From the NCBI GenBank assembly GCA_965262245.1, contig OZ253507.1:8796911-8860910 (forward strand): a stretch of DNA of 64,000 nucleotides. The letters run 5' to 3'. Every line of letters starts with the position of its first letter. The first letter of the stretch is position 1. Source of the stretch: Candidatus Marinacidobacterales bacterium. GTDB lineage: Bacteria; Acidobacteriota; Vicinamibacteria; Marinacidobacterales; SMYC01. The notes beneath the pieces are model-generated. The model searched no databases. It worked only from the letters and a program-made list of their open reading frames with translations, and was not told the origin of the DNA. Shown here piece after piece: positions 2,380 to 23,723 of the stretch. Made by a program: the position numbers and the translations under genes.

Positions 2380-3840
2380 CTACCCAAAATTCAACATCCG
2401 GCGGGACATCCCCTCGAAACGACTCTCCATCCTCAGACTGGTGATCTCGGTTCCCCAGGTCCGCCCCAGCAGCCAGCGCGGTGCGGTGATCGCTGCTTGC
2501 AACTCCTGGCCGTAGAGCACGTGACGAGTGAACACTACCGCTTGCGTCTGAGGCTGGCCGTCACCACCCATAGTGCCGAACACCAGGGTACGCCCGTCGT
2601 TCAGCAGCGCGAGTGGAGGTTGAATGGTGTGAAACGGCCGGCGGCGCGGTTTGAGCTCATTCAGCGAGTGCTTGTCCAGCGCAAAACTGCAGCCGCGGTT
2701 CTGCCAGGTGATGCCGGTATCCGGCAACACCACCCCCGAACCGAACTCCCAGTAGAGGCTTTGGATCATGCTGACCGCCCGACCAGTGGCATCGATTGCG
2801 CCCAGCCAAACCGTATCGCCCGCCGTCGCGGGATGGGGCCAGGGTGCCGCTCGCTCGCGATCGATGTCGGCCGCCATGGCATCGAGTGCCTGCTCGGTGA
2901 GGAATTCGGCCGGGTCCCGAGGCATGTAATCCGGATCCGTGACCTGCGCATCCCGCACCCGGATTGCCTGTTTGGTGGCCTCGACCAGACCGTGTACGAA
3001 ATCAAAGCTCTCCACCTTGCTGACACCTAACCGATCGAACACCCCCAACAGGATCAGCGACGCCAGTCCCTGGGTGGGGGGTGGCAGATTGAAAATCCGG
3101 CCGCAGTCGAGCGCCAAACAAAGCGGCACGACGTCGAGGCAACGGTAGCGTTTGAGGTCTTCGTGCCCGAGCGGGCTGGCGGCTGCCTGCAAGCCGGCCC
3201 CGATGCGGCGAGCCAGCTCGCCGCGGTAGAAATCATCGAGACCGTTGCGCACCAGCAGTTTCAGGGTTTCCGCAAGTGCGAGGTTCCTGAACAGCTCACC
3301 GGCAACCGGGATCCGTCCGCTCGGCATGTACAGGTCGTGGAACCCGACCGTATCCGCCATCTGATTGTGCCTTGCTGCGGTGTGACTGCTTTGACTGGCC
3401 GATACGGCAAAACCGTGTTCCGCGTAGAACACGGCATCTTCGAGCAGGCGGGCAAGTGGCAGACGGCCACCCCAGGTCCTGCCGACTTCGAAGGCGCGCT
3501 GCCAGCCGGAAACCGCGCCCGCTACCGTGAGGGCGGCACGGGGACCACGCGCCGGTATCGCCGCATCGCCGTGGTCGAGATAGTAGCGGGTGTCGGCGGC
3601 ATCGGCAGCGCCTCCGCAGGCATCGATACCAGCCGGCTCACTGCCGGGGGTGTGGAACAGCCAGAAGTTGTCACCGCCCAGACCGTTCATGTGCGGGTAC
3701 ACGACGGCGATAGTACTGCATGCTGCCAGCATTGCCTCGATGGCATTGCCACCTTCGGCAAGCACGCGTTGCCCCGCGCGCGCGGCGAGGTAGTGCGGCG
3801 CCGTTACCATACCCTGGTAGGCACGTCGGGTCTGCAGCAT
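2380..3840 (-). CDS. ggt: gamma-glutamyltransferase family protein (Ntn hydrolase)
   Basis: 486-aa ORF with a GGT-family layout; GDTVWLGAIDATGRAVSMIQSLYWEFGSGVVLPDTGITWQNRG nucleophile-region motif. Confidence 0.7.
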   Translation of the reverse strand: MLQTRRAYQGMVTAPHYLAARAGQRVLAEGGNAIEAMLAACSTIAVVYPHMNGLGGDNFWLFHTPGSEPAGIDACGGAADAADTRYYLDHGDAAIPARGPRAALTVAGAVSGWQRAFEVGRTWGGRLPLARLLEDAVFYAEHGFAVSASQSSHTAARHNQMADTVGFHDLYMPSGRIPVAGELFRNLALAETLKLLVRNGLDDFYRGELARRIGAGLQAAASPLGHEDLKRYRCLDVVPLCLALDCGRIFNLPPPTQGLASLILLGVFDRLGVSKVESFDFVHGLVEATKQAIRVRDAQVTDPDYMPRDPAEFLTEQALDAMAADIDRERAAPWPHPATAGDTVWLGAIDATGRAVSMIQSLYWEFGSGVVLPDTGITWQNRGCSFALDKHSLNELKPRRRPFHTIQPPLALLNDGRTLVFGTMGGDGQPQTQAVVFTRHVLYGQELQAAITAPRWLLGRTWGTEITSLRMESRFEGMSRRMLNFG

Positions 3841-3986
3841 TGAGGCCGTTTTCGAATACTAAGCGGACGATTCCGCTCCTGCAAGTGTGAATGCGCCGTG
3901 GCCGCCGACGCAAGCCGTCTCACTCACGCGACACGTGATTCATACGCGACGCATCCGCCGCCGTGTGAAAGGCAATGATGAGGTAG

Positions 3987-4262
3987 GATAGTTTTCTCCA
4001 ACCACGCCCCTCAGGGTCACGGATGCGGAGATCGGCATCGCCGACGATCAGCTGGAGTCGCTGTTCGATGAATTCACCCAGGCCAACAGCTCGACATCGC
4101 GACGCTACGGCGGCACCGGCTTGGAGCTTGCGATCAGTCGCCGTTTCTGTCGCTGATGGGCGGCGATATCACGGTCGAGAGCAACCCCAACAAAGGCACG
4201 ACGTTTGTCATGCAACTGCCGACCAACCCGGCCGCTCCACAGTCCGACGCGAGGGGCGGATA
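3987..4262 (+). pseudogene. histidine-kinase HATPase_c remnant, 5'-truncated, one frameshift
   Basis: Translation ..[45 protein letters not shown] / [23 protein letters not shown] is the G1/G2-box region of a sensor kinase; the frame breaks at a CC homopolymer near 4143. Confidence 0.55.
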
Positions 4263-4369
4263 GGTCCAGAACGTGGACATCGCTACGATGTGCGTCGCTG
4301 TTCCGTGACACGATGCGCCTGGTAACGTCGCTGGACAGTATCGCACGGATTGTGGTGTGATCGTTTGCT

Positions 4370-5475
4370 ATGGATGACATGCCGAGCAGTCGGACACCCG
4401 CCCTTTTCGACGCGCTGGACCCGCTACCAAGACTGCTGATGGGTCCGGGTCCGGTCGACGTCTATCCGCCGGTATTGCATGCCATGGCAACACCCATGCT
4501 GGGTCAGTTCGATCCACAGTTTACCGCCTACATGGACGAGGTCATGGTGTTGTACCGGCAGGTGTTTCGTACCGACAATCAGTGGACGCTGCTGGTCGAC
4601 GGCACGGCCAGAGCCGGTATCGAAGCCTGTCTGGCATCCCTGATCACGCCGGGGGATACGGTGCTGGTGCCGGTGTTCGGGCGTTTCGGGCACTTGCTGA
4701 TGGAGATCGCGGCGCGCTGTGACGCGCGCGTCGAATCGATCGAAACCGAGTGGGGCAGCGTGTTCGAGCCCGACCAGATCGCCGACGCGGTGCGTCGACA
4801 TCGGCCCAAGGTACTGGCGATGGTTCATGGTGACACCTCGACGACCATGGCGCAGCCGCTCGACGAAATCGGGGCGTATTGTCGTGACGCGGATGTCCTG
4901 GTTTACGTTGACTCCACGGCGACGCTCGGTGGCAATCCGCTGGAAGTCGATGCGTGGCAGCTCGATGCCGTGACCGCCGGATTGCAGAAATGTATGTCAG
5001 GCCCCCGGGTTCTGCGCCAGTCACTTTCAATGAACGCGTGGCGGACGTCGTCAATACGCGTAAACACATCGAACTCGGCATTCGCCCGCAAGGAGCCCGG
5101 GACGCTGCAGGCGGCCGTATACGCTCGAACTATTTCGATCTGCCGATGCTGATGGACTACTGGTCGCCGGCACGCCTGAATCACCACACCGAGGCGACCA
5201 GCATGCTCTACGCAGCGCGCGAGTGCGCCCGCGTAGTATTGGCCGAGGGTCTGGAGCAGGGGTTTCAGAGACACGCCGTTACCGGGCGCGCGTTGCGTGC
5301 CGGGCTCGAGGCTATGGATCTGCAACTATACGGCGACCCGGGTGCGCGGATGGCGAACGTGACCGGCGTAGTGATTCCAGATGGCATCGACGGTGATCGG
5401 CTGCGAACCGAAATGCTGGAGGATTTCGGTATCGAGATCGGCACCTCGTTCGGCCCGTTGCACGGCAAGATCTAG
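4370..5475 (+). CDS. class-V aminotransferase (serine-pyruvate / alanine-glyoxylate / ureidoglycine-glyoxylate, PucG/AGXT-like); split into two ORFs by a 1-bp indel in a C5 run near 5002-5006
   Basis: N-terminal LLMGPGPVDVYPPVL and C-terminal NYFDL..YWS..HHTEATSMLYAAREC follow AGXT-family order. ORFs 4370..5152 and 4954..5475 are the same protein in frames offset by one at ggcccccgggt. Confidence 0.75.
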
Positions 5476-5637
5476 CGGATCGGTACCATGGGTCACGTTT
5501 GTCGCCGAACGAGCGTATTCCGCTGTCTTACTGCACTGGAAGCCGTGCTCCGTCGGCAGAACTATACTTCGAGCCTTGGTGCGGCGGTCGATGCCGCCTA
5601 CGCCGCCTACGAACAGCCGAGCTGAGCCGTCGCGCCC

Positions 5638-7083
5638 ATGTCGAAACCGCCAGATCGTAAACGCCTCGATCATGTAACCGGCGTCATCAACGTGGGTCTC
5701 GATGCGTTCGCCAGTGACCTGGCAGAGCTCGGTGTCGATGTCGTGCACGTGGACTGGGCTCCGCCCGCTGGCGGCGATCCGGAGCTGGCGTCGCTGCTCG
5801 ATCAGCTCGATGACGTGTCGGCGAGCGGCCTGAGTTCGCGCGTCGAGACGGCCAATCGGGAGGCATTGCAGCGCATCCTGGCTGCAGACCCGGTGCTGAT
5901 CGATGTCGTGCCAGCGTCTGAATGCATCGCCGGGCTGGGGCCGCAAATGATCCTGCATGCCGGCCCGCCAATCGACTGGCAGCGTATGTGCGGGCCGATG
6001 CGGGGTGCGGTGGCCGGGATCGCGGTTTTCGAGGGCTGGGCGGAGGATCTGGCCGCGGCGGAACGCATGGCGGCGCGCGGTGCTTTCGACTTTCAGCCCA
6101 ACCATCACTTTGCCGCCGTTGGACCGATGACCGGTCTGACCACGATGTCCCAGCCACTGATGGTAGTAGAGAACAGGGCGTTCGGCAACCGTGCGTATTG
6201 CACGATCAACGAAGGCCTGGGAAAAGTCATGCGCTTCGGTGGCAACGACGCGGATGTCCTCAGCCGGCTCGCGTGGCTGCGTGACGTGCTCGGTCCGGTG
6301 TTGGGCGATGCTTTGCGTGACATGCGGGGCGTCCCACTCAAGAACCTGGTGGCCCGCGGTCTCGGGATGGGTGATGAGATGCACCAGCGAAACGTTGCCT
6401 GCACGGGACTGCTGTTGCGAGCATTGGCGCCCGCGCTGGCGCGGCGTTGTAACGATAGCGAAACGCTCGCGCAAGCTCTGACGTTCATCGCTGGCAACGA
6501 CCAGTTCTTCCTCAATATCGCGATGGTGCTCGGCAAGGCGATGATGGATCCGGTGCGCGGTATCGAAGCGAGCACCGTGGTGACCGCCATGTCCCGCAAC
6601 GGTACCGATTTTGGCATCCGAGTGAGTGGCACCGGCGATGAGTGGTTCATCGCGCCGGTGGAGATGCCGCAGGGCCTGTACTTCCCGGGGTTCAGCGAGG
6701 TTGACGCCAACCCGGACATGGGTGATTCGACGATCGTCGAGACCGTCGGGCTTGGCGGATTTGCGATGGGCGCAGCGCCAGCGGTGGCAGGGTTCGTAGG
6801 GGCCGGACAAGCATCCGAAGCGGCGCTCTTCACACACCGTATGCGTGAGATCACCGTCGGTGGGAACCCCGAGTGGACGATACCCGCGCTTGACTACCTG
6901 GGCGTACCAACCGGCATCGACATTCGCCGCGTCGTCGCGAGGCGCATCGCCCCGACCATCAACACCGGCATTGCGCACCGCGAACCCGGAATAGGGCAGG
7001 TCGGCGCCGGGGTTGTCGAAGCACCGCTCGGCTGCTTTGAGCAGGCGTTGCGTGCCTTCGCGGCCAGCATGGGTATCCGATGA
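5638..7083 (+). CDS. ylbE: DUF1116-family protein (YlbE-like)
   Basis: 481-aa ORF directly upstream of, and overlapping by 4 bp, an FdrA-like gene, as in the E. coli fdrA-ylbE-ylbF-ybcF locus. The assignment rests on recalled family resemblance. Confidence 0.55.
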   Translation: MSKPPDRKRLDHVTGVINVGLDAFASDLAELGVDVVHVDWAPPAGGDPELASLLDQLDDVSASGLSSRVETANREALQRILAADPVLIDVVPASECIAGLGPQMILHAGPPIDWQRMCGPMRGAVAGIAVFEGWAEDLAAAERMAARGAFDFQPNHHFAAVGPMTGLTTMSQPLMVVENRAFGNRAYCTINEGLGKVMRFGGNDADVLSRLAWLRDVLGPVLGDALRDMRGVPLKNLVARGLGMGDEMHQRNVACTGLLLRALAPALARRCNDSETLAQALTFIAGNDQFFLNIAMVLGKAMMDPVRGIEASTVVTAMSRNGTDFGIRVSGTGDEWFIAPVEMPQGLYFPGFSEVDANPDMGDSTIVETVGLGGFAMGAAPAVAGFVGAGQASEAALFTHRMREITVGGNPEWTIPALDYLGVPTGIDIRRVVARRIAPTINTGIAHREPGIGQVGAGVVEAPLGCFEQALRAFAASMGIR

Positions 7084-11114: not shown

Positions 11115-14100
11115 TCACGGCTGCCGGCCGGTTGAGGACTCTCCGTTACTCGACTCGGTGGCTCCCAGGATTCCGTCGAGCTTTTCCACTTGCTCCCGAA
11201 GTGCGCCTTCCAGTTGCTCGTAACGCTCGTAGGCGTCTCGGCCGGGCCGCTGGTCGGTGCGCCTCAAGTTCTGATAGAGGTAAACGAGCTGGTCCAAGAT
11301 CATGGGCTCGGCCTTCCACACGCTTCCAGCTTTGGGCAGCGCGGGGAGCAGCGCCTTTTTGATCTCGAGGAGAGTCTCGTCGTCGGGCCGTTGTTCGAGC
11401 GCCTTGTCGAGTCGGGTTGCAGCCCGGCGCGCGCTGCTGAGGGCATCACGCGTTTTGAGAACGAGCTCGACCTGAGCGGTGACGTCCGCCTCGGTGACCG
11501 TGCCTTCCTTGACGATTCGGGGATCCATCCTTGTTTCGAACGAGACGGTTTGCGTCCAATCTCCCGAAGTGAGTCGCGCCCGGTAGGTTCCCGGCGCCGC
11601 CATAGGTCCGTCTCGGCCGGATCGCTTCTCATCGGAATCCCACGGACCGTCATGCAAAAGATCCCAAAGGAAGCGATGCATCCCGGCGCTTTTCTCTAGC
11701 GCCGGACGTTCGAGCTCCGACTCGCCCATGCTGACCTGCTCGGGCACTACGTTCTGCTCGCTTGACGCCTCGCTCGAGTAGGCACGGATGACGTTTTCCT
11801 GCCCGTCGAGAATCTCGAGCTGGATCTCTCCCGCCGGCTCGGTGGCCAAGTAGTAGTCGATGTTGGCCCCGGGGAGTGGGTACTGAGGCTCGCTGGGTTC
11901 TGGAGTGCGGCTGAATCGGCGAGGGTAGAAAAGACGATAGGCATCCTTGACCTCGAAAAGATGGCTCTCCGCAGACGCCACTTTGTCGTCGATCTCGTGA
12001 AGCGGCGTCACGTCGTACAAGATCCAAAAACCCCTGCCCATCGTGGACAGCACCAGATCCTCGTTTACCACCTTGATGTCGGTCACCGGTGTGACAGGCA
12101 AGTCGAGCTGAAACGACTGCCAGTGTGCCCCGTCATCGAACGAGAGGAACATCCCGAACTCGGTTCCCGCGTAGAGCAGCCCCTCTCGATCGGGATCCTC
12201 CCGGACTACCCGGACCGGGTAGTCGTTGGGAATGCCGTTCTCCCCGGTTGTGATCCGCGTCCAGCTCTCCCCGTAATCCTCGGTTTTGTAGACGTGGGGG
12301 GTGAAGTCGTCGAGCATGTATCTCAGGATGGAGATGTATGCCTTGGATGGCTTGTGGGGGGACACCTCGATTTGCTGAACTCGGCCATAGGGTCCGAGCC
12401 CGGAAGGGGTCACGTCCTTCCAGTTCTTCCCGTTGTCCCGAGTGATATGGATGGGCCCGTCATTGGCGCCTACCCAGACCACCCCCCGCTCATGTGGCGA
12501 CTCCTGGATGTCGTAGATGGTGCTGAAGTGCTCCTCCCCGGTTGCATCGATGGTGATCGGTGTGCCGGAGAGCACCTGGGTTTCCGTCGTGAAGGCGGTG
12601 AGGTCCGGGGATATAGTCTGCCAGGACCTGCCGGCGTCCTCGGTCACGTGCACGTAGTGCGAGGTATGGTAGACCCGATTCGGATCGTGCGGAGAGACGT
12701 GGATGGGCGACACCCTCTGGAAGCGGAATCGGAGGTCTTTCGGGTTGAAACCGTTGATGTTCCAAAATCCTACGTAATAATGTTGCTCCTGGCCCGTGCG
12801 CCGGTTGTAGAGGCTGAAACGGCCCTTGCATTCGGCGTAGACAAGGTCGGCATCACCCGGCTTGGGAACCACCGGTCCGGTCTCGCAACCGCCGTGGGTT
12901 TCCCATAGCGCCGTGTGCCCGCCGGGCATGCTCCGCGGCGGAAGGCTCGGAAGGGAGATGGTCGTGTTGTCTTGCTGCCCCGCGTACATCCGATAAGGGA
13001 ACTCATCGCTCACGTCCACCTGATAGAGCTCCGCGGTCGACTGGTTGTGCATACTGGACCAAGTCTTGCCGCCATCGAGGGTGACGACCGCCCCTCCGTC
13101 GTTCGCTTGGATGAAGATGTGCGGGTTATCGGGGTTGATCCACATGTCATGGTTGTCACCGTGGGGTATGGTCTGGCGATCCCAAGTCTTGCCGCCGTCC
13201 TCGGATTTGTAGTACCCCTCGGCCATCGCCCAAAGCGTGTCCGGATCCTTCGGATGAGCATCGAGGTTGCAAAAGTAGAAGGGGCGGTAGAGGATCTCTT
13301 TGTGGTCCGAGACTTGAGACCAGCTCCCGCCGCGATCGTCGGAGCGGTAAACGCCGCCCTCGTCGCCGGGCGCTTCGATCAACACATAAACCCTATCGGG
13401 GTCGGCCGCCGAGACGGCTAGATCCGCTTTTCCTCGGAGGCCGTTCGGGAGGCCATTCGTCAACTGGGACCAGTGATCCCCTCCGTCAGTGGATTTATAG
13501 ACCCCTCCCTCGTCGCCGCCGCTGATGATGGTCCAGGGCTTGCGCTCCGCGAGCCACATGGTGGCGTAGATCTCATCCGGATTGTCCGGGGCGAACTCGA
13601 GGTCGACGGCGCCCGTTTTCTCCGATATGTACAGCACCTTCTCCCAGGACTCTCCTCCGTCCCTCGACCGGTAGACCCCACGCTCGGGGTTCGCGCCAAA
13701 CGGGTTGCCGATGGCGGCGACGTACACGAGATCCGGGTTGCGCGGATGGATGAGGAGCGCTCCACTATTGCCCGTCTTCTCGAGGCCGATATGCGTCCAG
13801 GTCTTCCCGGCGTCGGTGGACTTGTAAACGCCTTTTCCGATGATCACGTTGCTTCGGATTCCGTCCGAGCCGGTGGCGACGTAGACGATATTGGGATCCG
13901 ACTCGGCAACCCGGATGGCGCCAATCGAGCCGGTGGCAAAGTAGCCATCGGAGATGGGGTGCCAGGTGTGGCCGTAATCGGTGGTCTTCCAGACGCCACC
14001 TCCGCTCGCTCCCATGTAGAACGTCGACGGCTGGTCCCGGTGGCCGGCAACCGCGGTCACCCGGCCTCCCCGGGACGGGCCCACCGTCCGATAGGACAGA

Positions 14101-16526: not shown

Positions 16527-16619
16527 TTCCCTCCCGACTTGTAACCCTACGCCAATCCAGTCCAGTTTGGTCGTGTTCCAGTTCGTGGGCTGAAGGATCC
16601 ATGTCGGCGAGAGTACAGG

Positions 16620-17426
16620 GCGTGTCCCCTCTGGCCGGAGACCGTGGATGCACTTCGGACTTATCTCCAACAACGCGACGATGGAAACCAGCCGGATGCG
16701 CCCCTCTTCCTGAATGCGCACCGCAGACGGCTCTCCCGCTTCGGCGTCGTCACGATCTTTAAACGACACGTCGCGACCGCGGCCACCAACCAACCGTCCC
16801 TCGCGGCAAAGCGCATCGGTCCTCACACTATGCGACACTATGTCGGGTCCCGGACTATGTCGAGTCGTTACTAAACGACGCCGCAGAAGGACTCCGAGGC
16901 GGTGTTTACTCGACATAGTCCGAGGTTGTTCTGGAAGACCAAAAGCCGAGGCCGTACCGAGCTGACAAGAGCTAATGTTGCAGAACCCCTATGAATTCCG
17001 TATCGACCGTCTCTCACATCTTTCGGCTAGAGGACAGGTGCCGAATAGGCGATTGAGAAACCTCCGTTTTATGTCGGCTAACACTCGTATCGCTTCCGGC
17101 CGCAATCCACTGAAAACCGGGGAATTTCGTTCGAGTGCGAAGACTCTACTCGACATAGTCCGGAACCCGACATAGTGTCGCCTATGTCTTTGAAGACATA
17201 GCGACATACGGCTGCCATGCATCTGCTCCAGTCTGGTGTCGAGCTCAACGTCATCAAGTCGTGGCTCGGGCACGTTAGTATCACCACGACGAGCCAGTAC
17301 ATCGAGATCGACATGGAGATGAAGCGCGAGGCACTCGAGCGCTGCACCCCGCCGGTCCCCGTGACCACAGGTGACAGACCCTGGCACTCCCAGAGCGATA
17401 TCATCCAATGGCTCGAGGACCTGTGA
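16620..17426 (+). pseudogene. tyrosine recombinase (XerC/D-like integrase) 3' remnant, further split by a MITE insertion between ..HTMRH and TAAMHLLQSG..
   Basis: LFLNAHRRRLSRFGV and the HxxR box (HTMRH) lie in ORF 16644..16874; LLQSGVELNVIKSWLGHVSITTTSQY (the C-terminal Tyr region) lies in ORF 17217..17426. The N-terminal half of the integrase is absent. Confidence 0.7.
16831..17207. mobile_element. MITE-like insertion, ~370 bp, with ~35-bp imperfect terminal inverted repeats rich in GACATAG/CTATGTC motifs; splits the integrase HxxR box
   Basis: Left ATGCGACACTATGTCGGGTCCCGGACTATGTCGAGTCG matches the right-end reverse complement GCGACACTATGTCGGGTTCCGGACTATGTCGAGTA at 34 of 36. An extra internal copy of ACTCGACATAGTCCG at ~16911. 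Flanking GCGACA(C/T) is a possible duplication. Confidence 0.6.
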
Positions 17427-17482
17427 GCCTCCGAAACTTATGTGAAGTAATACGTCGCCCGTGCTGTCGAGACCCGCCTCAA

Positions 17483-17893
17483 TCAAGGCTCGTCGGCCGC
17501 GACGTCCATGCTACTCCACATATCCGCAAGCTTCACATAACTTGAATTTTCCTTCGCCATCGTGAGCACGAGCTCACGTATCGTTTCCATCACGCGAGGT
17601 CGCCCTGGACCGCGGCGATGGCTCCCATCGTACTTTGCCGCGATGAGCTCTCTGTACCAGCGCAACAATGTGTCAGGTGTCACGAGGTCAGCGATTTCCC
17701 TCAGGCTCTCCCGGCACAACGCCTTCGCCTTCGCTGCCAGGCGCCGACGCTGGTCATCCGTGAAACTTAGGCGACGGGCACCGAGCTGCTCCCGGAGCAC
17801 TCGATTCTCTTCCTTCAGGTACTCGATTACATCCAATCCGATCGGCGACCTCCGCCCTCTGTCCGGGTTGACGTCGCTGAAGCGCCTGGTCAT
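17483..17893 (-). pseudogene. N-terminal HTH fragment (136 aa) of an rve-type DDE transposase
   Basis: ..[69 protein letters not shown].. matches the N-terminal domain of a widespread HTH+rve transposase family. It stops where the catalytic domain should begin. Confidence 0.6.
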
Positions 17894-18348
17894 GAATCAC
17901 GCCGCGCTCTCCGGCTTGACGTCGCTCGAGGTACTGGGTCTCGATCATAATCGCATCCGCGATATCAGCGCGCTGGCTGATCTCGATGAGCTGCGGACGC
18001 TCTCTCTCAGCTTCAACCAGATCAGCGACGTGAGCCCTGTGGCCACGCTCGCCTCACTCGAGACGTTCCGCGCCGGCCACAACGAGATCGGCGACATCGG
18101 TCCGCTGGCTGGCCTCGAGAGGCTTCGCGAGCTGCACCTGGAGGCTAATCAGATTGATGACATCGCCGCCCTCTCGGGAAACGCGTAGCTTCGCCGCATG
18201 TTCTCGTGGCCAACGAAATCTCCGACCTCTCGCCACTGGCCGACAACGGTGGTGTCGGGGAGGGCGATAGCGTATATCTGGGCGCTAATCCCATCGACTG
18301 CCAGGATCAGGCTGAGCAGTACGACGCGCTAACCCCGGAACGGAGCTA
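17830..18348 (+). pseudogene. leucine-rich-repeat (internalin-like LRR) protein fragment, 5'-truncated with one frameshift near 18185
   Basis: Repeating L..L..L.L..N.I.DISPLA.L units in ORF 17562..18188 continue in another frame (VANEISDLSPLADNGGVGEGDSVYLGANPIDCQDQAEQY) to ~18348. Confidence 0.55.
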
Positions 18349-18585
18349 ACGTGTTCCCCTCCTGCAGGTAGCTGAGCGGGATTGTCTGGACATCCGATTG
18401 TAGGATGGGCGAGACACCTGAACCTTGGCTCCTGTCGATCCGAAACGGCTACGCCAGTACCGATAACGGCGCGGGACCCGTGGGTCGAACCGACCGATGC
18501 CATCCGCTTCGACAGGCTTGCCAAACGGCTCGAGGACGGCTAACCTAGTGCCTCGCTTCGGAAATCCATCGTTGGGAGGGCGCGA

Positions 18586-19311
18586 ATGGAGCCGAGAGCC
18601 ACGAGTCTTTTGCAGATCGTCGATCGCCAGTTCCGCAGATGGGAGCTCCTGCGCGAAAAGCATCGCGCGGATGCGAAGCCTGTCCACTGGCCTATCATTA
18701 CCATCGCCCGCGAGTTTGGCGCCCGAGGGGAGGCACTCGGTCGAACGCTCGCGGAGGGAATCGATTTCTCCTTCTGGGACCAAGAGCTGGTCCACGCCAT
18801 GGCGGAGGAGTCGGGTGCGAACGAAGCCTTGCTCGCGACCCTCGACGAGTATCGCCGCAACGTCATCGAGGACAGTGTGGACGGCGCGCTCATGGGCGGA
18901 AAATACATGAACAGCGCATATATACGGCGCCTCGTCAACCTGGTGCATACGATCGCGACCCAGGGGAGAAGCGTCGTCGTGGGCCGCGGCGCTCACTATG
19001 TGGTGGCCCCCGATGAGGCGCTTCGAGTTCGAGTCGTGTGTTCGCTTGAAGAGCGTGTCCGCCGGTACAGCGAGCACGAGGGAACGAGTCTCGATGCCGC
19101 CCGCAAGATTTTGGATCGTGAGGACGCTGCGCGTGCCCGCTTCCTGCGCCACAACTACGGGAGCGATGGGACGAACCCGGCCGACTACGACTTGATCGTC
19201 AATACGGGACCGATACCGCTCGAGCGGGCTGCCGCGCCGATCCTCGCCGCCTACGAAGCGAAGTTTGCTCGCAGACCCGGGGAGGCGGAAACAGAACCCC
19301 TCAGATCTTGA
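18586..19311 (+). CDS. cytidylate-kinase-like family protein (P-loop NTPase, PF13189-like)
   Basis: PIITIAREFGARGEALGRTLAEGIDFSFWDQELVHAMAEESG matches the cytidylate-kinase-like family start; 241 aa. The longer antisense ORF 18346..19386 was rejected. Confidence 0.6.
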   Translation: MEPRATSLLQIVDRQFRRWELLREKHRADAKPVHWPIITIAREFGARGEALGRTLAEGIDFSFWDQELVHAMAEESGANEALLATLDEYRRNVIEDSVDGALMGGKYMNSAYIRRLVNLVHTIATQGRSVVVGRGAHYVVAPDEALRVRVVCSLEERVRRYSEHEGTSLDAARKILDREDAARARFLRHNYGSDGTNPADYDLIVNTGPIPLERAAAPILAAYEAKFARRPGEAETEPLRS

Positions 19312-19389
19312 TCGCCAGGTCGGCGCCGTCGCGGGAGGAGAAACCTCGTAGGTGACTGCCATGGAGCAGACGCGTGTCGCTTCCACTTA

Positions 19390-20266
19390 GCTCTTGATCG
19401 CCAGAACGTCTTCGATCGCCGCGCGGTCCACTCGACCCTCATTTCGAAGGATCTGCCGTTTGGCCACCTCGTGTGAGACAACATCACCTGAGTCAGCGGC
19501 CTCCAGAGCGCGATCGATCTTCTTCTTAACGTAACGTCCAAGATCGAAAGCGTGAAAGGGTGGAGCAGCTGGTTCTGGAGAAGAGCTTGCTTCCGTCGAG
19601 AGCCGAGCACACGTCGTACTTCTTCCAAATGAGAGATGGGGAAAACCGCGCGCCCGCTTCGTTGAACTCCGTCACGAGAAACTCTGACGGCGCCCTTTCG
19701 CCATCGAGCGGCAATATCCAGAGGTCGTTCCCGGTGCTCGAATTCTGTTCCTCGTAAGCGAGGACGGCGCCGTCGGGAGACCAGGAGGTAATGATGACGG
19801 GGCACTCGTTCGAGAACAGGCGCTCGGCTTCCCCGCCGCCATCCGCTCGCATCTTGTCGAAGTGATGTGAATCGGACGTCGAAAGGAAGATGACACTCGC
19901 CCCATCCGGGGACCAAACCGGCGTTTGGGCGCTGGCGTCCATGGTGAGACGCGTTCTTGTGTCGCGAACCAAATGGAGTATCCAGATAACGTTGTCCGCA
20001 TCGGTGGCCAAGCGTTGGCCGTCGGGCGCGATGCGTGGATGATAGCTAGCTCCGCCGAGAAGACTCGACGTCCCGAGTCGGTCGACCCACGTGAGCTGTT
20101 GGTTGGCCGAGGTCCCCGGCACGTAGGCGAGCGAGCCGTTGTCCGAGACGGCAAAATGGGCGGCGTTTTCGAGCGCCCAGATGTCGTTGGCCAACAAGGT
20201 TGGGGCGTCAGTGATTCGCAAGCGCATCGGATCGAAGGGCACCGTGACTAAGCGCGCGCGCTCCAT
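19390..20266 (-). pseudogene. TolB-like PD40 (WD40-like beta-propeller) repeat protein fragment; N-terminal domain missing and C-terminus frameshifted
   Basis: Repeated ..SPDG..LAY.. and ..SWSPDGAVLAYEE.. propeller motifs. The reading frame decays after ..EAGARFSP; the continuation appears in the overlapping ORF 19251..19916. Confidence 0.5.
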
Positions 20267-20398
20267 CGCCTAAAGGCGATGGGTTCGGTCGCCGACTAAA
20301 GTCGGCCAGGCCTTGCCGCGATTCGCTATTCGCTTACCTTGAAACTATCGTCGTCCTGGGGCACGTCACCTTGGAGCTCTATGTACTTCGCTATAACC

Positions 20399-20779
20399 TC
20401 ATCCGTCACATTGCCCCGTCGACCTCACGAAGTAACCACGGGCCCAAAGGTGACGACCCCAGAACTCCTTGCGGATCGACCGAAAGTCGCGCATCAACCG
20501 ATGCGACGACTTGCCCTTGATTAACTGCATCACACGACTCGGCGACAGGCTCGGCGGCACGCTCAGCAACAGGTGCACGTGCTCTGGCCGTACATGACCC
20601 TTCAGTATTTCTATCTGGTTTCGAGCACAGATCTCTCGGATAAGATCCCTCAGGCGAACTGCCACATCTCCTCTCAAAGCCGGCTTGCGGTACTTCGGGA
20701 TGAATACAAAGTGATAGTTTAACTGGTACGCCGTGTGCGATGATTTTCGGTATCCTTTCATCCGGGGATCGTACCGCAT
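20399..20779 (-). CDS. tnpA: IS200/IS605-family TnpA (Y1/HUH transposase)
   Basis: YHFVFIPKYRK..., HVHLLLSVPPSLSPSRVMQLIKGKSS and WARGYF are IS200-like motifs; 126 aa. Confidence 0.8.
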   Translation of the reverse strand: MRYDPRMKGYRKSSHTAYQLNYHFVFIPKYRKPALRGDVAVRLRDLIREICARNQIEILKGHVRPEHVHLLLSVPPSLSPSRVMQLIKGKSSHRLMRDFRSIRKEFWGRHLWARGYFVRSTGQCDG

Positions 20780-20797
20780 GCCTCCTTAAGGCTTCGC

Positions 20798-21363
20798 CTA
20801 AAGGCGAGGGGTTTCAACCATCCCCGAGTGAGACACTAAGTTTTCCGACAGCGGGATGAGGAAGTCTAAGCACTCTCGTCGGGTGGTGCCGATCAATCTC
20901 TCACAATAACAATTCGCTTGCGGCGCGAATGGCGGCGTCCTCAACACCCTAACGCCCATCGCTCGCACGGACCTCCGCAAGTCTTCGAAGAACTTGGAAT
21001 CTCGGTCGACGATCGCGAAACGATAATCGTGCTCGCACGGTATCGCTTCGGAACTGCTGCAAGGTCCACTCCGCGGTCGGCTGCGTGGTCACGTTCACGT
21101 GGAGAATCCTGCGCGTATCGACTTCCATCACGACGAAGACATAGAGGAATTGGAACCTCGCCGTGACAACGGTCAAGAAGTCGGCGGCGATGATCGCCTC
21201 CGCATGATTGCGAACGAATGTGGACGATGAATGGCGTGTGCCTCGGTTGCTGTCATCTCGACTCGGCATGTACTTTCGCACCGTACGCGGCGACACTCGG
21301 ATCCCGAGCTTGACGAGGAGCTCATGAGCGATTCTCTCTTCGCCCCAGCTGACGAAATGTGGA
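20798..21363 (-). pseudogene. rve-type DDE transposase fragment (HTH-linker and integrase core), frameshifted and N-terminally truncated
   Basis: ..[27 protein letters not shown].. then ..AEAIIAADFLTVVTARFQFLYVFVVMEVDTRRILHVNVTTQPTAEW.. and ..GVRVLRTPPFAPQANCYCERLIGTTRRECLD.. in two overlapping ORFs (20949..21296 and 20798..20980). Confidence 0.65.
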
Positions 21364-21386
21364 GCTCCACATTTCGTCAGCTGGGG
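21341..21386. repeat. 46-bp perfect palindrome (two 23-bp arms, no spacer) at the head-to-head junction of two diverged rve transposase fragments
   Basis: gCCCCAGCTGACGAAATGTGGAG|CTCCACATTTCGTCAGCTGGGGc. Both flanking ORFs read ..HFVSWG.. from the palindrome outward, then diverge (..[15 protein letters not shown].. versus ..[17 protein letters not shown]..). Confidence 0.8.
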
Positions 21387-21843
21387 CTATACGAGGATTT
21401 GTGGGGCTCTCGCTAACATGGGCCACGAGGTCGGCAGAAACACCGTGAAACGCATCCTCGCGGAACACGGTATCGAGCCCGTACCCGCGAGGGACAAACG
21501 CACTCCCTGGAGCACCTTCCTGAAAGCCCACTGGGGAGCCATAGCTGCAACGGATTTCTTCACCGTGGAAGTGCTCACCGCCCGTGGATTGATTCGCTAT
21601 TTCGTGCTTTTCGTTATCGATCTCAAGACCCGTCGCGTCGAGATCGCGGGCATCGTCCATCAGCCCTACGATGATTGGATGAAGCAAATCGCGCGAAACT
21701 TGACGGACGCGATGGATGGATTTCTTCGCGACGCTCGATTTCTGATATGTATTGAACTGTCAAGCCCCGGCACGATCTTTTTTAGAGCATCCGATCTCCC
21801 ACGCTCATCTGGTCAGGGCACGAGCAGCATGAAGCGACGGTGA
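21364..21843 (+). pseudogene. rve-type DDE transposase fragment (a diverged paralog of the minus-strand copy), truncated at both ends
   Basis: ..[87 protein letters not shown].. is the HTH-linker plus the first part of the integrase core; it ends before the catalytic E. Confidence 0.65.
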
Positions 21844-22604
21844 ATCAACCTGATATACGCGTGTTGGTTAACGCCTGATATGTATTCGTCGCGGAGCTGC
21901 CTCTGTCTACTGGCGAGTGTTCTCCCGATAGGGGAGTCTCTTAGCACATTACGAGGATTCTCCAACCGGGCTCCTCGTGCCCTGGCCACATCGTTGCGAT
22001 GCCGACCTGTTCTGCCTGTTGCGCGGTATCGTGTGTCGTGGTGATCCACCTCCTGAGTCCGGAGCCTCCGGCGGATGCCTCCGGGAGTTACCTGAGAGTT
22101 GTGTCCGGAACATGCCCGGTTCGTGGCACAGTGTCTCAGGGCATAGTCATAACCCACGGTCCCCCCGAGACCAATCGATGTTTTTTAACACGACTCTGGC
22201 TCAATCTCCGTTCTTTTTATTTGAGGGAGGCTGTGGGAAACGCCATCGTTGTCCTCCAGTTGTTCGACGCCGTTGGTACAGGCTCCGAAGTAACCAAAAT
22301 GCACTGGCGTTTTCCATGGCCTCCACTAATGAAGCAACCCTTCCGCTAGTAATGTTTCCTCTTGAACATTTTTCATATATATATTTTCTGGCGTTGGTTG
22401 AATGGCTCAGCGTTTTCAATCGAATCTCGACGGTACAGGCCGATTTCGCTCTCAGTGCTCTTGACTGCGGCTGAACTCGTGATTCGAGCTCACCATCCCG
22501 GTGTCGGGGCGCCTCAGCACGGACACAAAGCCTCCTTCGTCCATCGCCCATAGTTTCGGGAACCTCGGCGCGCAGGGCATGCATTCGGTTCAGTGCCTCT
22601 CGAT

Positions 22605-23723
22605 CTACTTCGTCTTCTGCTCTGCCATAACGGCGCAGGCAATCGCCCAAACAAAACCGCTCAGTTCTCTTGCGATCGCCGTCGCGACCTTTCCTGGTTC
22701 CTTTCCGTTGCGTTGCAAAACCCGGTAGCGATTGCACAGCCGCTTCTGCGCCTTCCATGCAATCGCCTGCGCTGGTTTCGTCGCCTTCTCCGCTTTCTTC
22801 TGCATGTGGTAGCTCTGCCGTGCCGGAAACCGGTACGACCATGCCGCTTCGACCAATAGACGACGCACACGACCGTTGCCCGTTTTAGTGATCCCACCGC
22901 GCTTCTGCTTGCCGCCGCTCGTATGCTCAGAGGGAACCAAGCCAACGTACGCCATCAACTCGCGAGGCGAGTCGAATCGGCTGATATCACCGAGCTCCGT
23001 CACCAGCGACATCGCAGTCAACAGCTGCACCCCACGAAGCGCCATCAACGATTCCACCACTGGTTTCAAGCTCCAGTTCGCAAGGACTCTCTCCATCTCC
23101 TTGTCTAGACCTCGAACACGCTCCTCCGTTTGTTTCACCGCGCCCACGTATTCTTCCAGCACGATCTGCTGAACCGGAAACTTCATCTTCACCTCTGCCA
23201 ACCAGCAGTAGTACCCCTGGGTCCATTTGCTCTTGCCCGCCGTGTACCTCTTGCTGTAGCGCAGGAGAAACGCACTCACGCGCTGTTTCAGCTGCAATTC
23301 CACCCGTTTCATCTCTCCTCGAGCTCGCGTCAAATCTCTTATCGCTTCCTGCTCCTCGTCCGGTACCCAAACCGGCGTCAACTCACCAGAGCGAAACAGC
23401 GACGCTAACTTCAACCCATCGCGACGATCCGTCTTCACTCGCTCGCCAGGTTTCTTCGGAATCAACGACGGCGCCACCACTACACAATCGTGACCCGTCT
23501 CTTTAATCCAACGGTAAACTTCGTATCCACACGGTCCCGCCTCGTAACAGAATCCAAGCACTTCGCCCTCTCGCGAGAGGCGATGGACCAGATTCTGAAT
23601 TGATTTCTTCGTGTTGGCGATCACACCCAGCGATTCGGGCTTGGACCGACCCGGGTTCGCCAACGCTGGCGAGATCGTCTCCTTGTGTACGTCCAGTCCC
23701 ACGTATCCGCTATACTCTTCCAC
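22605..23723 (-). CDS. IS110-family transposase (DEDD), full length 372 aa; the IS110 element spans roughly 22.3-23.8 kb
   Basis: N-terminal YVGLDVHKETI, then ELGDISRFDSPRELMAYVGLVPSEHTSGGKQKRGGITKTGNGRVRRLL, a typical IS110 C-terminal module. Confidence 0.8.
   Translation of the reverse strand: MEEYSGYVGLDVHKETISPALANPGRSKPESLGVIANTKKSIQNLVHRLSREGEVLGFCYEAGPCGYEVYRWIKETGHDCVVVAPSLIPKKPGERVKTDRRDGLKLASLFRSGELTPVWVPDEEQEAIRDLTRARGEMKRVELQLKQRVSAFLLRYSKRYTAGKSKWTQGYYCWLAEVKMKFPVQQIVLEEYVGAVKQTEERVRGLDKEMERVLANWSLKPVVESLMALRGVQLLTAMSLVTELGDISRFDSPRELMAYVGLVPSEHTSGGKQKRGGITKTGNGRVRRLLVEAAWSYRFPARQSYHMQKKAEKATKPAQAIAWKAQKRLCNRYRVLQRNGKEPGKVATAIARELSGFVWAIACAVMAEQKTK

Follow-up and report, generated by a model that had tools for sequence, protein, structure and literature searches.

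Recombinase in trio (RIT) elements are recognised by a trio of adjacent, overlapping tyrosine recombinase genes (Van Houdt et al. 2009/2012, PMC3414803; Cupriavidus metallidurans CH34, PMC2864759). They carry terminal inverted repeats and, at their ends, imperfect palindromic repeats of 47–51 bp, and a hairpin intermediate has been proposed for them (PMC5737581). Insertions in mobile-element genes have been reported for IS66 tnpA, a Tn6049-like transposase gene and radC on an integrative and conjugative element (PMC2864759, PMC3414803), and the RitC-type protein is Xer-like with a conserved extra C-terminal helix (PMC8138268). RITs are widespread, yet how they move remains to be shown (PMC10214605); a table in that 2023 review lists their target specificity as 'not tested', with no defined attachment site. 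The same source describes a 6-bp carry-over from the previous site for Tn554 and SE elements. Here we describe a locus in a 64,000-nucleotide stretch of contig OZ253507.1 from a Candidatus Marinacidobacterales bacterium (the whole stretch is called the window below), in which a perfect 46-bp palindrome joins two rve transposase genes, A and B, head to head by their back halves. As judged by comparison with related sequences, this palindrome is very probably the core of a RIT attachment site, present here without its element. The locus is a genuine scar of recombination that can be explained, and the element family behind it is known but poorly understood.

The first-pass annotation had described the palindrome as 23 + 23 bp without a spacer. 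The sequence bore this out, with the coordinates moved up by one base, from 21341–21386 to 21342–21387. The palindrome reads GCCCCAGCTGACGAAATGTGGAG/CTCCACATTTCGTCAGCTGGGGC, with its centre at 21364/21365. Its 22-nt core occurred once in the window and was matched in 0 of 100 shuffles, and no further copy of the palindrome was found in the 64-kb window. As a single strand it has a predicted fold of −27.9 kcal/mol (z = −10.8). The shared ATGTGGAG is not a chance match; it is the 10-nt motif WWATGTGRAG that is repeated at RIT ends. Intact A-type genes read ..GCGAAC GTCAGC TGGGGC GAAGAG.. (L095–L097; protein N-V-S-W-G), and the prediction, set before the search, that CGTCAG would be native to such genes held. 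A's own sequence therefore reaches the 20-mer, and only the central 20 of the 46 bp are foreign to both transposase genes. A nearly intact relative of B (L005) reads GGAAAATTCAAGCTGGGG, giving AAT TCAAGC TGGGGC as the native B site. In the window, B's TCAAGC survives only at the front-half junction (as TCAAG), and the back-half junction has A's CGTCAG. Native sequence begins from V-S-W-G in A and within S-W-G in B. Both arms read outward, as reported earlier; the 'HF' of the shared start ..HFVSWG.. is encoded by the palindrome and comes from neither gene.

Exact-protein look-ups recovered the same locus in at least six samples, from metagenomes assembled with long reads. The junction was identical in eight related long-read contigs (L001, L004, L006–L009, L011 and L012), and two others (L002 and L003) carried C>T at the first base right of the palindrome centre. 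The strains sharing the junction are about 99.7% identical, yet show many gains and losses of insertion sequences around the site. Because the junction is common to strains that differ in insertion-sequence content, it is older than their divergence.

Both flanking genes read outward and belong to the rve/HTH_21 transposase group, with Pfam matches of the fragments to HTH_21, HTH_32 and rve_3. Gene A was 87–91% identical by tblastn to P0241, an intact 364-aa rve transposase of unassigned family that scored 96 bits with the IS481 model (cut-off 224) and 93 bits with the IS3 model (cut-off 160) of NCBIfam. Gene A has a frameshift near 21048 and breaks off around residue 295 of 364, at the position of an IS200-type gene. 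The back half of gene B showed 94% DNA identity to positions 2691–3053 of L005, and its front half was 95.6% identical to positions 2391–2684, which are contiguous there with the back half. A gene 94–96% identical to B thus runs through in L005, with the counterparts of the two window pieces just 6 nt apart. An N-terminal fragment at 17483–17893 had been noted before; it exists, its transposase part occupies 17541–17834 on the minus strand, and the tail of that open reading frame is read-through into the RIT terminal repeat. The left end of the B insertion sequence likely lies at 17834, against a leucine-rich-repeat gene. A and B have decayed by frameshift and truncation, and both transposase genes are dead. 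As had been proposed, the arms are different family members and do not form a fold-back: their identity was 34% over 108 aa, in place of the 40–50% given earlier, and the comparative data agree. The recurrent breakpoint also stood up, since it matches the insertion point of this RIT subfamily in rve genes. Nearly all of 120 B relatives read through it (..ENPxWGY..). By this comparison, the breakpoint belongs to RIT-occupied copies and not to the wider transposase family.

Several smaller features were observed in and around these genes. In L005 (ENA ERZ25074053, ctg448528), a 7-nt tandem duplication, GCTGGGG/GCTGGGG, lies at 2680–2700, exactly at the RIT insertion point, and a 1-nt deletion 25 nt downstream restores the frame; the duplication might be the footprint of an imprecise excision or simple slippage. 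Similarity between the B back half and L005 is lost after ..CGATTTCTGAT, at about 21745. The sequence CTGATATGTATT is present near 21745 and again near 21875, and these copies are possibly the ends of a small insertion (21740–21890). The IS200-type gene is bracketed by 20-nt direct repeats, TCGCCTAAAGGCGA(T/G)GGGTT, at 20266 and 20794 (span 20266–20813), each holding a small hairpin, as in repetitive extragenic palindrome (REP)-associated transposases. A further rve fragment on the minus strand, in the region 823–1409/1611–2413, is 32–44% identical to P0241; an IS256-family (Transposase_mut) copy adjoins it, with a second copy at 18300 in L001–L003.

The window also holds the tail of a recombinase gene. 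RitC of a relative, L017, matched it by tblastn in two parts (residues 189–274 at 16608–16865 with 62% identity, and residues 258–337 at 17175–17423 with 82% identity), the second match covering the C-terminal 80 residues of L017 RitC with its ..DIIQWLEDL tail; judged from these matches, the fragment is RitC-type. The best NCBIfam matches of L017 RitC were XerD and XerC, both under the cut-offs, and the RIT proteins likewise scored best with these two models, far below the cut-offs. L017 encodes three overlapping recombinases of 418, 326 and 337 aa with 4-bp overlaps. Such a trio is the RIT signature, so the relatives of the window fragment are RITs (PMC3414803, PMC2864759). After the stop codon, all ritC relatives share a tail made of copies of WWATGTGRAG, a putative, binding-site-like repeat of RIT tyrosine-recombinase elements. 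In the window, copies lie at 17438–17447 (TTATGTGAAG), 17514–17523 (CTCCACATAT) and 17531–17540 (CTTCACATAA). Immediately after the terminal repeat comes CTTGAA, which is B's hexanucleotide in reverse complement, and then the B front half. L013–L018 and L024 have the same architecture after ritC. With only the ritC tail of the trio, the window carries a remnant rather than an element. The miniature element within it (about 350 bp, ends ..ACTATGTCGGGTCCCGGACTATGTCGAGT..) cuts ritC at the codons of the H-x-x-R-H active site, and a deletion in L010 begins inside this miniature element.

The RIT relatives gave the anatomy of the junction. Four close relatives from different phyla showed the order element end, 6–7 nt, spacer-less palindrome, 7 nt and TGGGG, the last encoding W-G of an rve back half on the same strand (Table 1). 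Homologous palindromes were found in L013, L014, L015, L017 and L024, always 7 nt before TGGGG in L013, L015, L017 and L024. A simple insertion is seen complete in L016, whose recombinase trio is interrupted by an unrelated insertion: ..IRRMAIANPL/RIT/CTTCACATAA-ctaggga-AAATGTGGAGCTCCACATTT-c-CCGCTT-TGGGGT (PLWGAPRI), with CCGCT(T) duplicated on both sides. In L013 the front half is followed by a shortened RIT and then by an inserted element unrelated to it; the palindrome, which bears the C>T variant also seen in L002 and L003, comes next and leads into the back half. Sequence inspection showed that the first ~27 nt of the two L017 ends are inverted copies of each other; RIT terminal inverted repeats measure about 34 bp. 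A RIT end directly abuts ..EN + 5 nt in the window, L013, L016, L018 and L019; in the window, L013, L018 and L019 the end that elsewhere precedes the palindrome meets an rve front half in inverted orientation. The RIT subfamily of the window enters rve genes two codons before the conserved W-G of (E/A)NxxWG. One end of such a RIT has two copies of the 10-nt motif back to back, AAATGTGGAG/CTCCACATTT. In an inserted element, the front half of the gene ends in H, the RIT follows, and rc(H)-palindrome-H then leads into the back half; H is the 6-bp crossover and rc its reverse complement. In L014 the palindrome is flanked by two ritC-side RIT ends.

Table 1. Features of the window (positions 1–64,000) and junction palindromes of four RIT relatives.
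Feature	Position	Strand	Remarks
Perfect 46-bp palindrome	21342..21387	none	read as two mirror-image right-hand RIT junctions with one common core
Predicted 20-bp RIT core palindrome, AAATGTGGAG/CTCCACATTT	21355..21374	none	two inverted copies of WWATGTGRAG
Crossover hexanucleotide CGTCAG	21349..21354	−	native to gene A: C of the N codon + GTC AG
Mirror CGTCAG, B side	21375..21380	+	non-native to B, whose own hexanucleotide is TCAAGC
Gene A back half, rve transposase from V-S-W-G	20840..21353	−	tblastn with P0241; weak Pfam rve_3
Gene B back half, rve/HTH_21 transposase from S-W-G-Y	21379..21747	+	ends near 21745
Gene B front half	17541..17834	−	ends ..MAKEN + 5 nt (TCAAG); left-hand RIT junction
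IS200-type Y1 transposase gene	20399..20779	−	Pfam Y1_Tnp, E = 4e-37; lies where A ends
ritC remnant, last ~150 codons	16608..17426	+	5'-truncated; interrupted by ~350-bp miniature element
RIT terminal repeat, ritC side	17438..17540	+	103-bp unit ending exactly at the break
Miniature inverted-repeat element, 37-nt arms	16829..17184	none	inserted in ritC remnant
L016 palindrome, AAATGTGGAG/CTCCACATTT			same sequence as the central 20 nt of the window palindrome; rve back half WGAPRIPGEIL
L015 palindrome, AAATGTTGAG/CTCAACATTT			rve back half WGYRRIHGEL
L017 palindrome, AAATGTTGAG/CTCAACATTT			rve back half WGEDKVA
L024 palindrome, AAATGTGAAA/TTTCACATTT			rve back half WGYDRIAGAL

The palindrome was then followed beyond these relatives. 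A profile built from the 120 B relatives was too narrow to place distant RITs in rve genes, and a DNA census was used instead. Spacer-less palindromes centred on ..ATGTGGAG/CTCCACAT.. were present at about 25 of 75 more distant ritC loci, and the distance from ritC to the palindrome was 90–155 bp in these as in L015–L017 and L024. The exact 20-mer occurred in more than 120 JGI metagenome contigs, in which the 20-mer and RIT ends adjoin at least seven kinds of gene: IstB (IS21), rve, ATP-dependent DNA ligase, DUF932, AAA_22 ATPase and two kinds of DDE transposase. This is comparative evidence of mobility. Each kind of target is broken at a conserved motif and has its own 6-nt spacer; IstB always continues from its DE(L)GY Walker B motif, and the breaks lie at ..GRPSF.. 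in the DNA ligase and at VDEAHH in the AAA_22 ATPase. The half-site plus gene pattern CCACATTTCGTCAGCTGGGG found no match in species-representative genomes, and an A-type hexanucleotide beside this core is evidently rare.

A spacer census covered 82 palindromes in 80 retained loci (L098–L177). The commonest state was RIT end, 6 nt, palindrome, 6 nt and interrupted gene. The two 6-nt spacers mirrored each other at all six positions in 33 of the 82 palindromes, at five in 12 and at four in 21 (at least 4/6 in 66/82), and H was also duplicated at the far junction in all six loci with a whole RIT (3.53 or 3.87 kb). Palindromes at both RIT ends, with back halves reading outward, were found in L017, L107, L109, L141, L156 and L177. 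The outer flanks of these were mostly near-identical mirror copies (86–100% in L107, L141, L156 and L177): those of L141 are 100% identical for 62 nt and then diverge, and those of L107 and L177 are 86–92% identical. Such mirrored flanks suggest that a piece of the target can travel with the element. Two diverged back halves stand head to head around the palindrome, as in the window, independently in L117 (rve genes, RLWSRRRIASEL.. and PSWGYTRIRDAL..), in L151 and L163, which are the same (two IstB genes), and in L148 (two FYExGY proteins). Four cases of this target/target class were checked by eye and by protein similarity; automatic classifiers mislabelled variants such as TAATGGTGAG.

A site-specific event at a conserved ..AAATGTGGAGC.. 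motif had been suggested from the sequence alone, and the comparison supported it: the motif is the RIT-end repeat and the breakpoint is the RIT insertion point. Of the proposed mechanism, site-specific recombination at the motif stands, but hairpin resolution is neither needed nor shown. A hairpin intermediate is not required here because the 6-bp duplications fit ordinary strand exchange. A RIT attachment core together with a history of inversion is, in our judgement, probably the best explanation of the locus as a whole, and we lean towards the inversion route itself. In a free RIT, the site would comprise two dif-like cores in mirror image with the palindrome in common, S1-rc(h)-S2/S3-h-S4. 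Integration would proceed via one core, and the other, S1-rc(h)-S2, would stay intact beside the palindrome. Here, a RIT with h = CGTCAG would have been resident in insertion sequence A, its matching target. Its spare core would have recombined with an imperfect site in an intact B, about 3 kb off and in the same orientation, inverting the window from about 17541 to 21380 (about 3.8 kb). One product would be RIT end-CTTGAA-B front half (17531–17552); the other, A back half-CTGACG-palindrome-CGTCAG-B back half, would have given the 46-bp palindrome. Later, the A front half, ritA, ritB and the start of ritC would have been lost, left of about 16620; the miniature element would have entered ritC and the IS200-type element the 3' end of A. 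All of these are visible as truncations or insertions.

From left to right, the region now holds the ritC remnant, the B front half (inverted), host genes over 3 kb (for a leucine-rich-repeat protein, a cytidylate kinase-like and a PD40-like protein), the A back half (inverted), the palindrome and the B back half. The proposed history accounts for this arrangement because one inversion predicts exactly that order. Reversing the inversion on paper made gene B whole and gave back a normal junction of RIT, palindrome and A back half. In Int-family exchange with unlike overlaps, one junction keeps the overlap of the target and the other keeps that of the element; TCAAG at one B junction and CGTCAG at the other therefore fit recombination across unlike overlaps. 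More generally, RITs may use a mirror-symmetric double core, in which two dif-like sites share the 20-bp palindrome, the 6-bp overlaps set the target and the spare core rearranges target copies, so that the elements would be parasites of conserved motifs in mobile-element genes. This generalisation is offered tentatively.

Several observations weigh against this account. The window has no intact RIT: ritA, ritB and the A front half were not found in it by tblastn, and it does not contain the predicted A-front-half::RIT junction. None of the loci showed a free-element junction, in which the palindrome would lie between the two kinds of RIT end; the ends joined in L014 are both of the ritC side. 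The two spacers of L016 are not mirror images of each other, the one on the RIT side being ctaggga. L010 keeps the RIT::B-front-half junction and diverges from the window after 20384. At least one further rearrangement must therefore have occurred, and the two B halves could stem from different B copies. The double core and the tolerance of unlike overlaps are themselves deduced from sequence comparison, no laboratory has yet reproduced RIT recombination, and published accounts leave the RIT sites undefined (PMC10214605).

Other routes to the same joint were weighed against the inversion of a RIT resident in A. In one, which we consider unlikely, A and B were both occupied, each with a RIT and a palindrome, and an exchange between the identical palindromes, aligned in the inverted sense that their symmetry permits and either site-specific at the dyad or driven by homology, inverted the intervening DNA. 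This would yield the same final order and the same palindrome; B did once receive a RIT, according to its front-half junction, and the reciprocal RIT-palindrome-RIT junction that is predicted has one example, L014. That junction is absent from the window, however, and two RITs are required where one suffices. The crossover would also have to fall at the dyad, outside the 6-bp spacers indicated by the duplications, or depend on RecA acting on only 20–32 bp. It is more doubtful still that the palindrome is an empty site, left when recombination between two palindromes deleted a RIT that they had flanked and that had separated the A and B back halves. The six double-palindrome RITs named above show that such a starting state exists, with back halves reading outward, but their flanks are mostly near-identical mirrors rather than relatives with 34% identity. 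The B-front-half::RIT junction, 3.8 kb away and inverted, would need a separate event.

Routes without a RIT fared worse. Arm identity stops exactly where A and B diverge, which would suit a fold-back repair in which a hairpin-capped break was opened off-centre and joined via the shared 9 nt AGCTGGGGC. An accident would not recreate a central 20-mer that is conserved beside RIT ends in unrelated genomes and on more than 120 metagenome contigs, and we consider this repair very improbable. Palindromic joints are a known assembler artefact, and a chimeric assembly junction had been kept as the alternative in the first-pass annotation. It is ruled out by the 10 related long-read contigs that share the junction, two of them with a derived point mutation; the same configuration with other genes in unrelated metagenomes (L117, L151/L163 and L148) also speaks against it. 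Head-to-head partial genes around a repeat resemble the segment borders of a shufflon, a programmed gene switch with a constant front half and alternative back halves. Fusing the B front half to the B back half via the motifs would, by sequence inspection, add 26 nt and break the frame. The motifs at the B front-half junction and beside the B back half are direct on the plus strand, not inverted, and A and B are otherwise decayed. Chimera and switch together retain hardly any credibility.

Two further candidates were tried and rejected. The end of an IS91-family element at a CTTG target (CTTCACATAA/CTTG) was dropped because the recombinase relatives are RIT trios; that reading was also undercut by the integrase of the IS91-type element in L010, which is unrelated. 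An integron attC site was discarded because the core-site consensus did not fit the sequence.

Set beside described systems, the locus resembles RITs through its relatives, which have the trio with 4-bp overlaps (L017), terminal inverted repeats and palindromic ends; it differs in that the window has only a ritC tail and an element-free palindrome. The two junctions of B differ, the right having A's CGTCAG and the left keeping TCAAG, a pattern that may correspond to the 6-bp carry-over of Tn554 and SE elements but is seen in a single case with alternative histories. Tn554, Tn916-type and SE elements, which are tyrosine-recombinase transposons with unlike coupling sequences, are without the palindromic double core and the recombinase trio. 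The RIT motif pair CACATAA-N6-AAATGTG looks like dif (..CGCATAA-TGTATA-TTATGTT..), and the motif like its XerD arm; we treat this as a lead. Unlike XerC/D-dif, RITs have their own recombinases, and their targets are coding motifs of multi-copy genes, not the chromosomal dif. A shufflon is called to mind by the partial genes pointing away from a recombinase site and by the tyrosine recombinase gene in the vicinity, but the halves cannot be fused in frame and both genes have decayed; the arrangement is a by-product and not a switch.

The neighbourhood differed between strains in other respects. In L010 (ERZ28763718), the sequence beyond position 11800, corresponding to window 20384/20385, holds genes that are unrelated, one for an 843-aa protein and those of an IS91-type element that has an integrase of its own; this divergence point is a strain-level rearrangement breakpoint adjoining the IS200-type element. 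L001–L003 carry about 1.08 kb extra at 20711/20712, and L009 and L012 are without 19673–20955. An intact IS110-family transposase gene of 372 aa lies at 22605–23723 on the minus strand and is split by insertions in other strains (IS66-type or IS3-type genes in L006, L007 and L009). Among the relatives, L013 carries an IS91-family element (Y2 transposase and its own integrase) at 3100–5730, between the shortened RIT and the palindrome, which makes three nested mobile elements inside one rve gene.

Leaving Ricker et al. (2013) aside, the 20-bp core and the mirrored and duplicated 6-bp crossover go beyond the published accounts of RITs considered here. So do the rve target defined to the codon, its parallels in IstB and other genes, and the element-free palindromes that fuse two back halves. 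The locus and its relatives provide concrete sequences for this element family: a 10-nt putative binding motif, a 20-bp core, a 6-bp crossover, left and right junctions and a codon-level target. They suggest that a RIT can rearrange the chromosome between copies of insertion sequences and leave a perfect palindrome, which annotators might otherwise take for an assembly error and which may still be usable as a RIT site. If the double-core model is true, the core would allow entry into a target in either orientation and leave a live spare core after integration. The spare core would recombine with other copies of the target gene, giving inversions as well as palindromes that lack an element and can act as fresh attachment sites. 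RITs would then be specialised parasites of conserved coding motifs in rve, IstB and DDE transposase genes, driving rearrangement between insertion-sequence copies.

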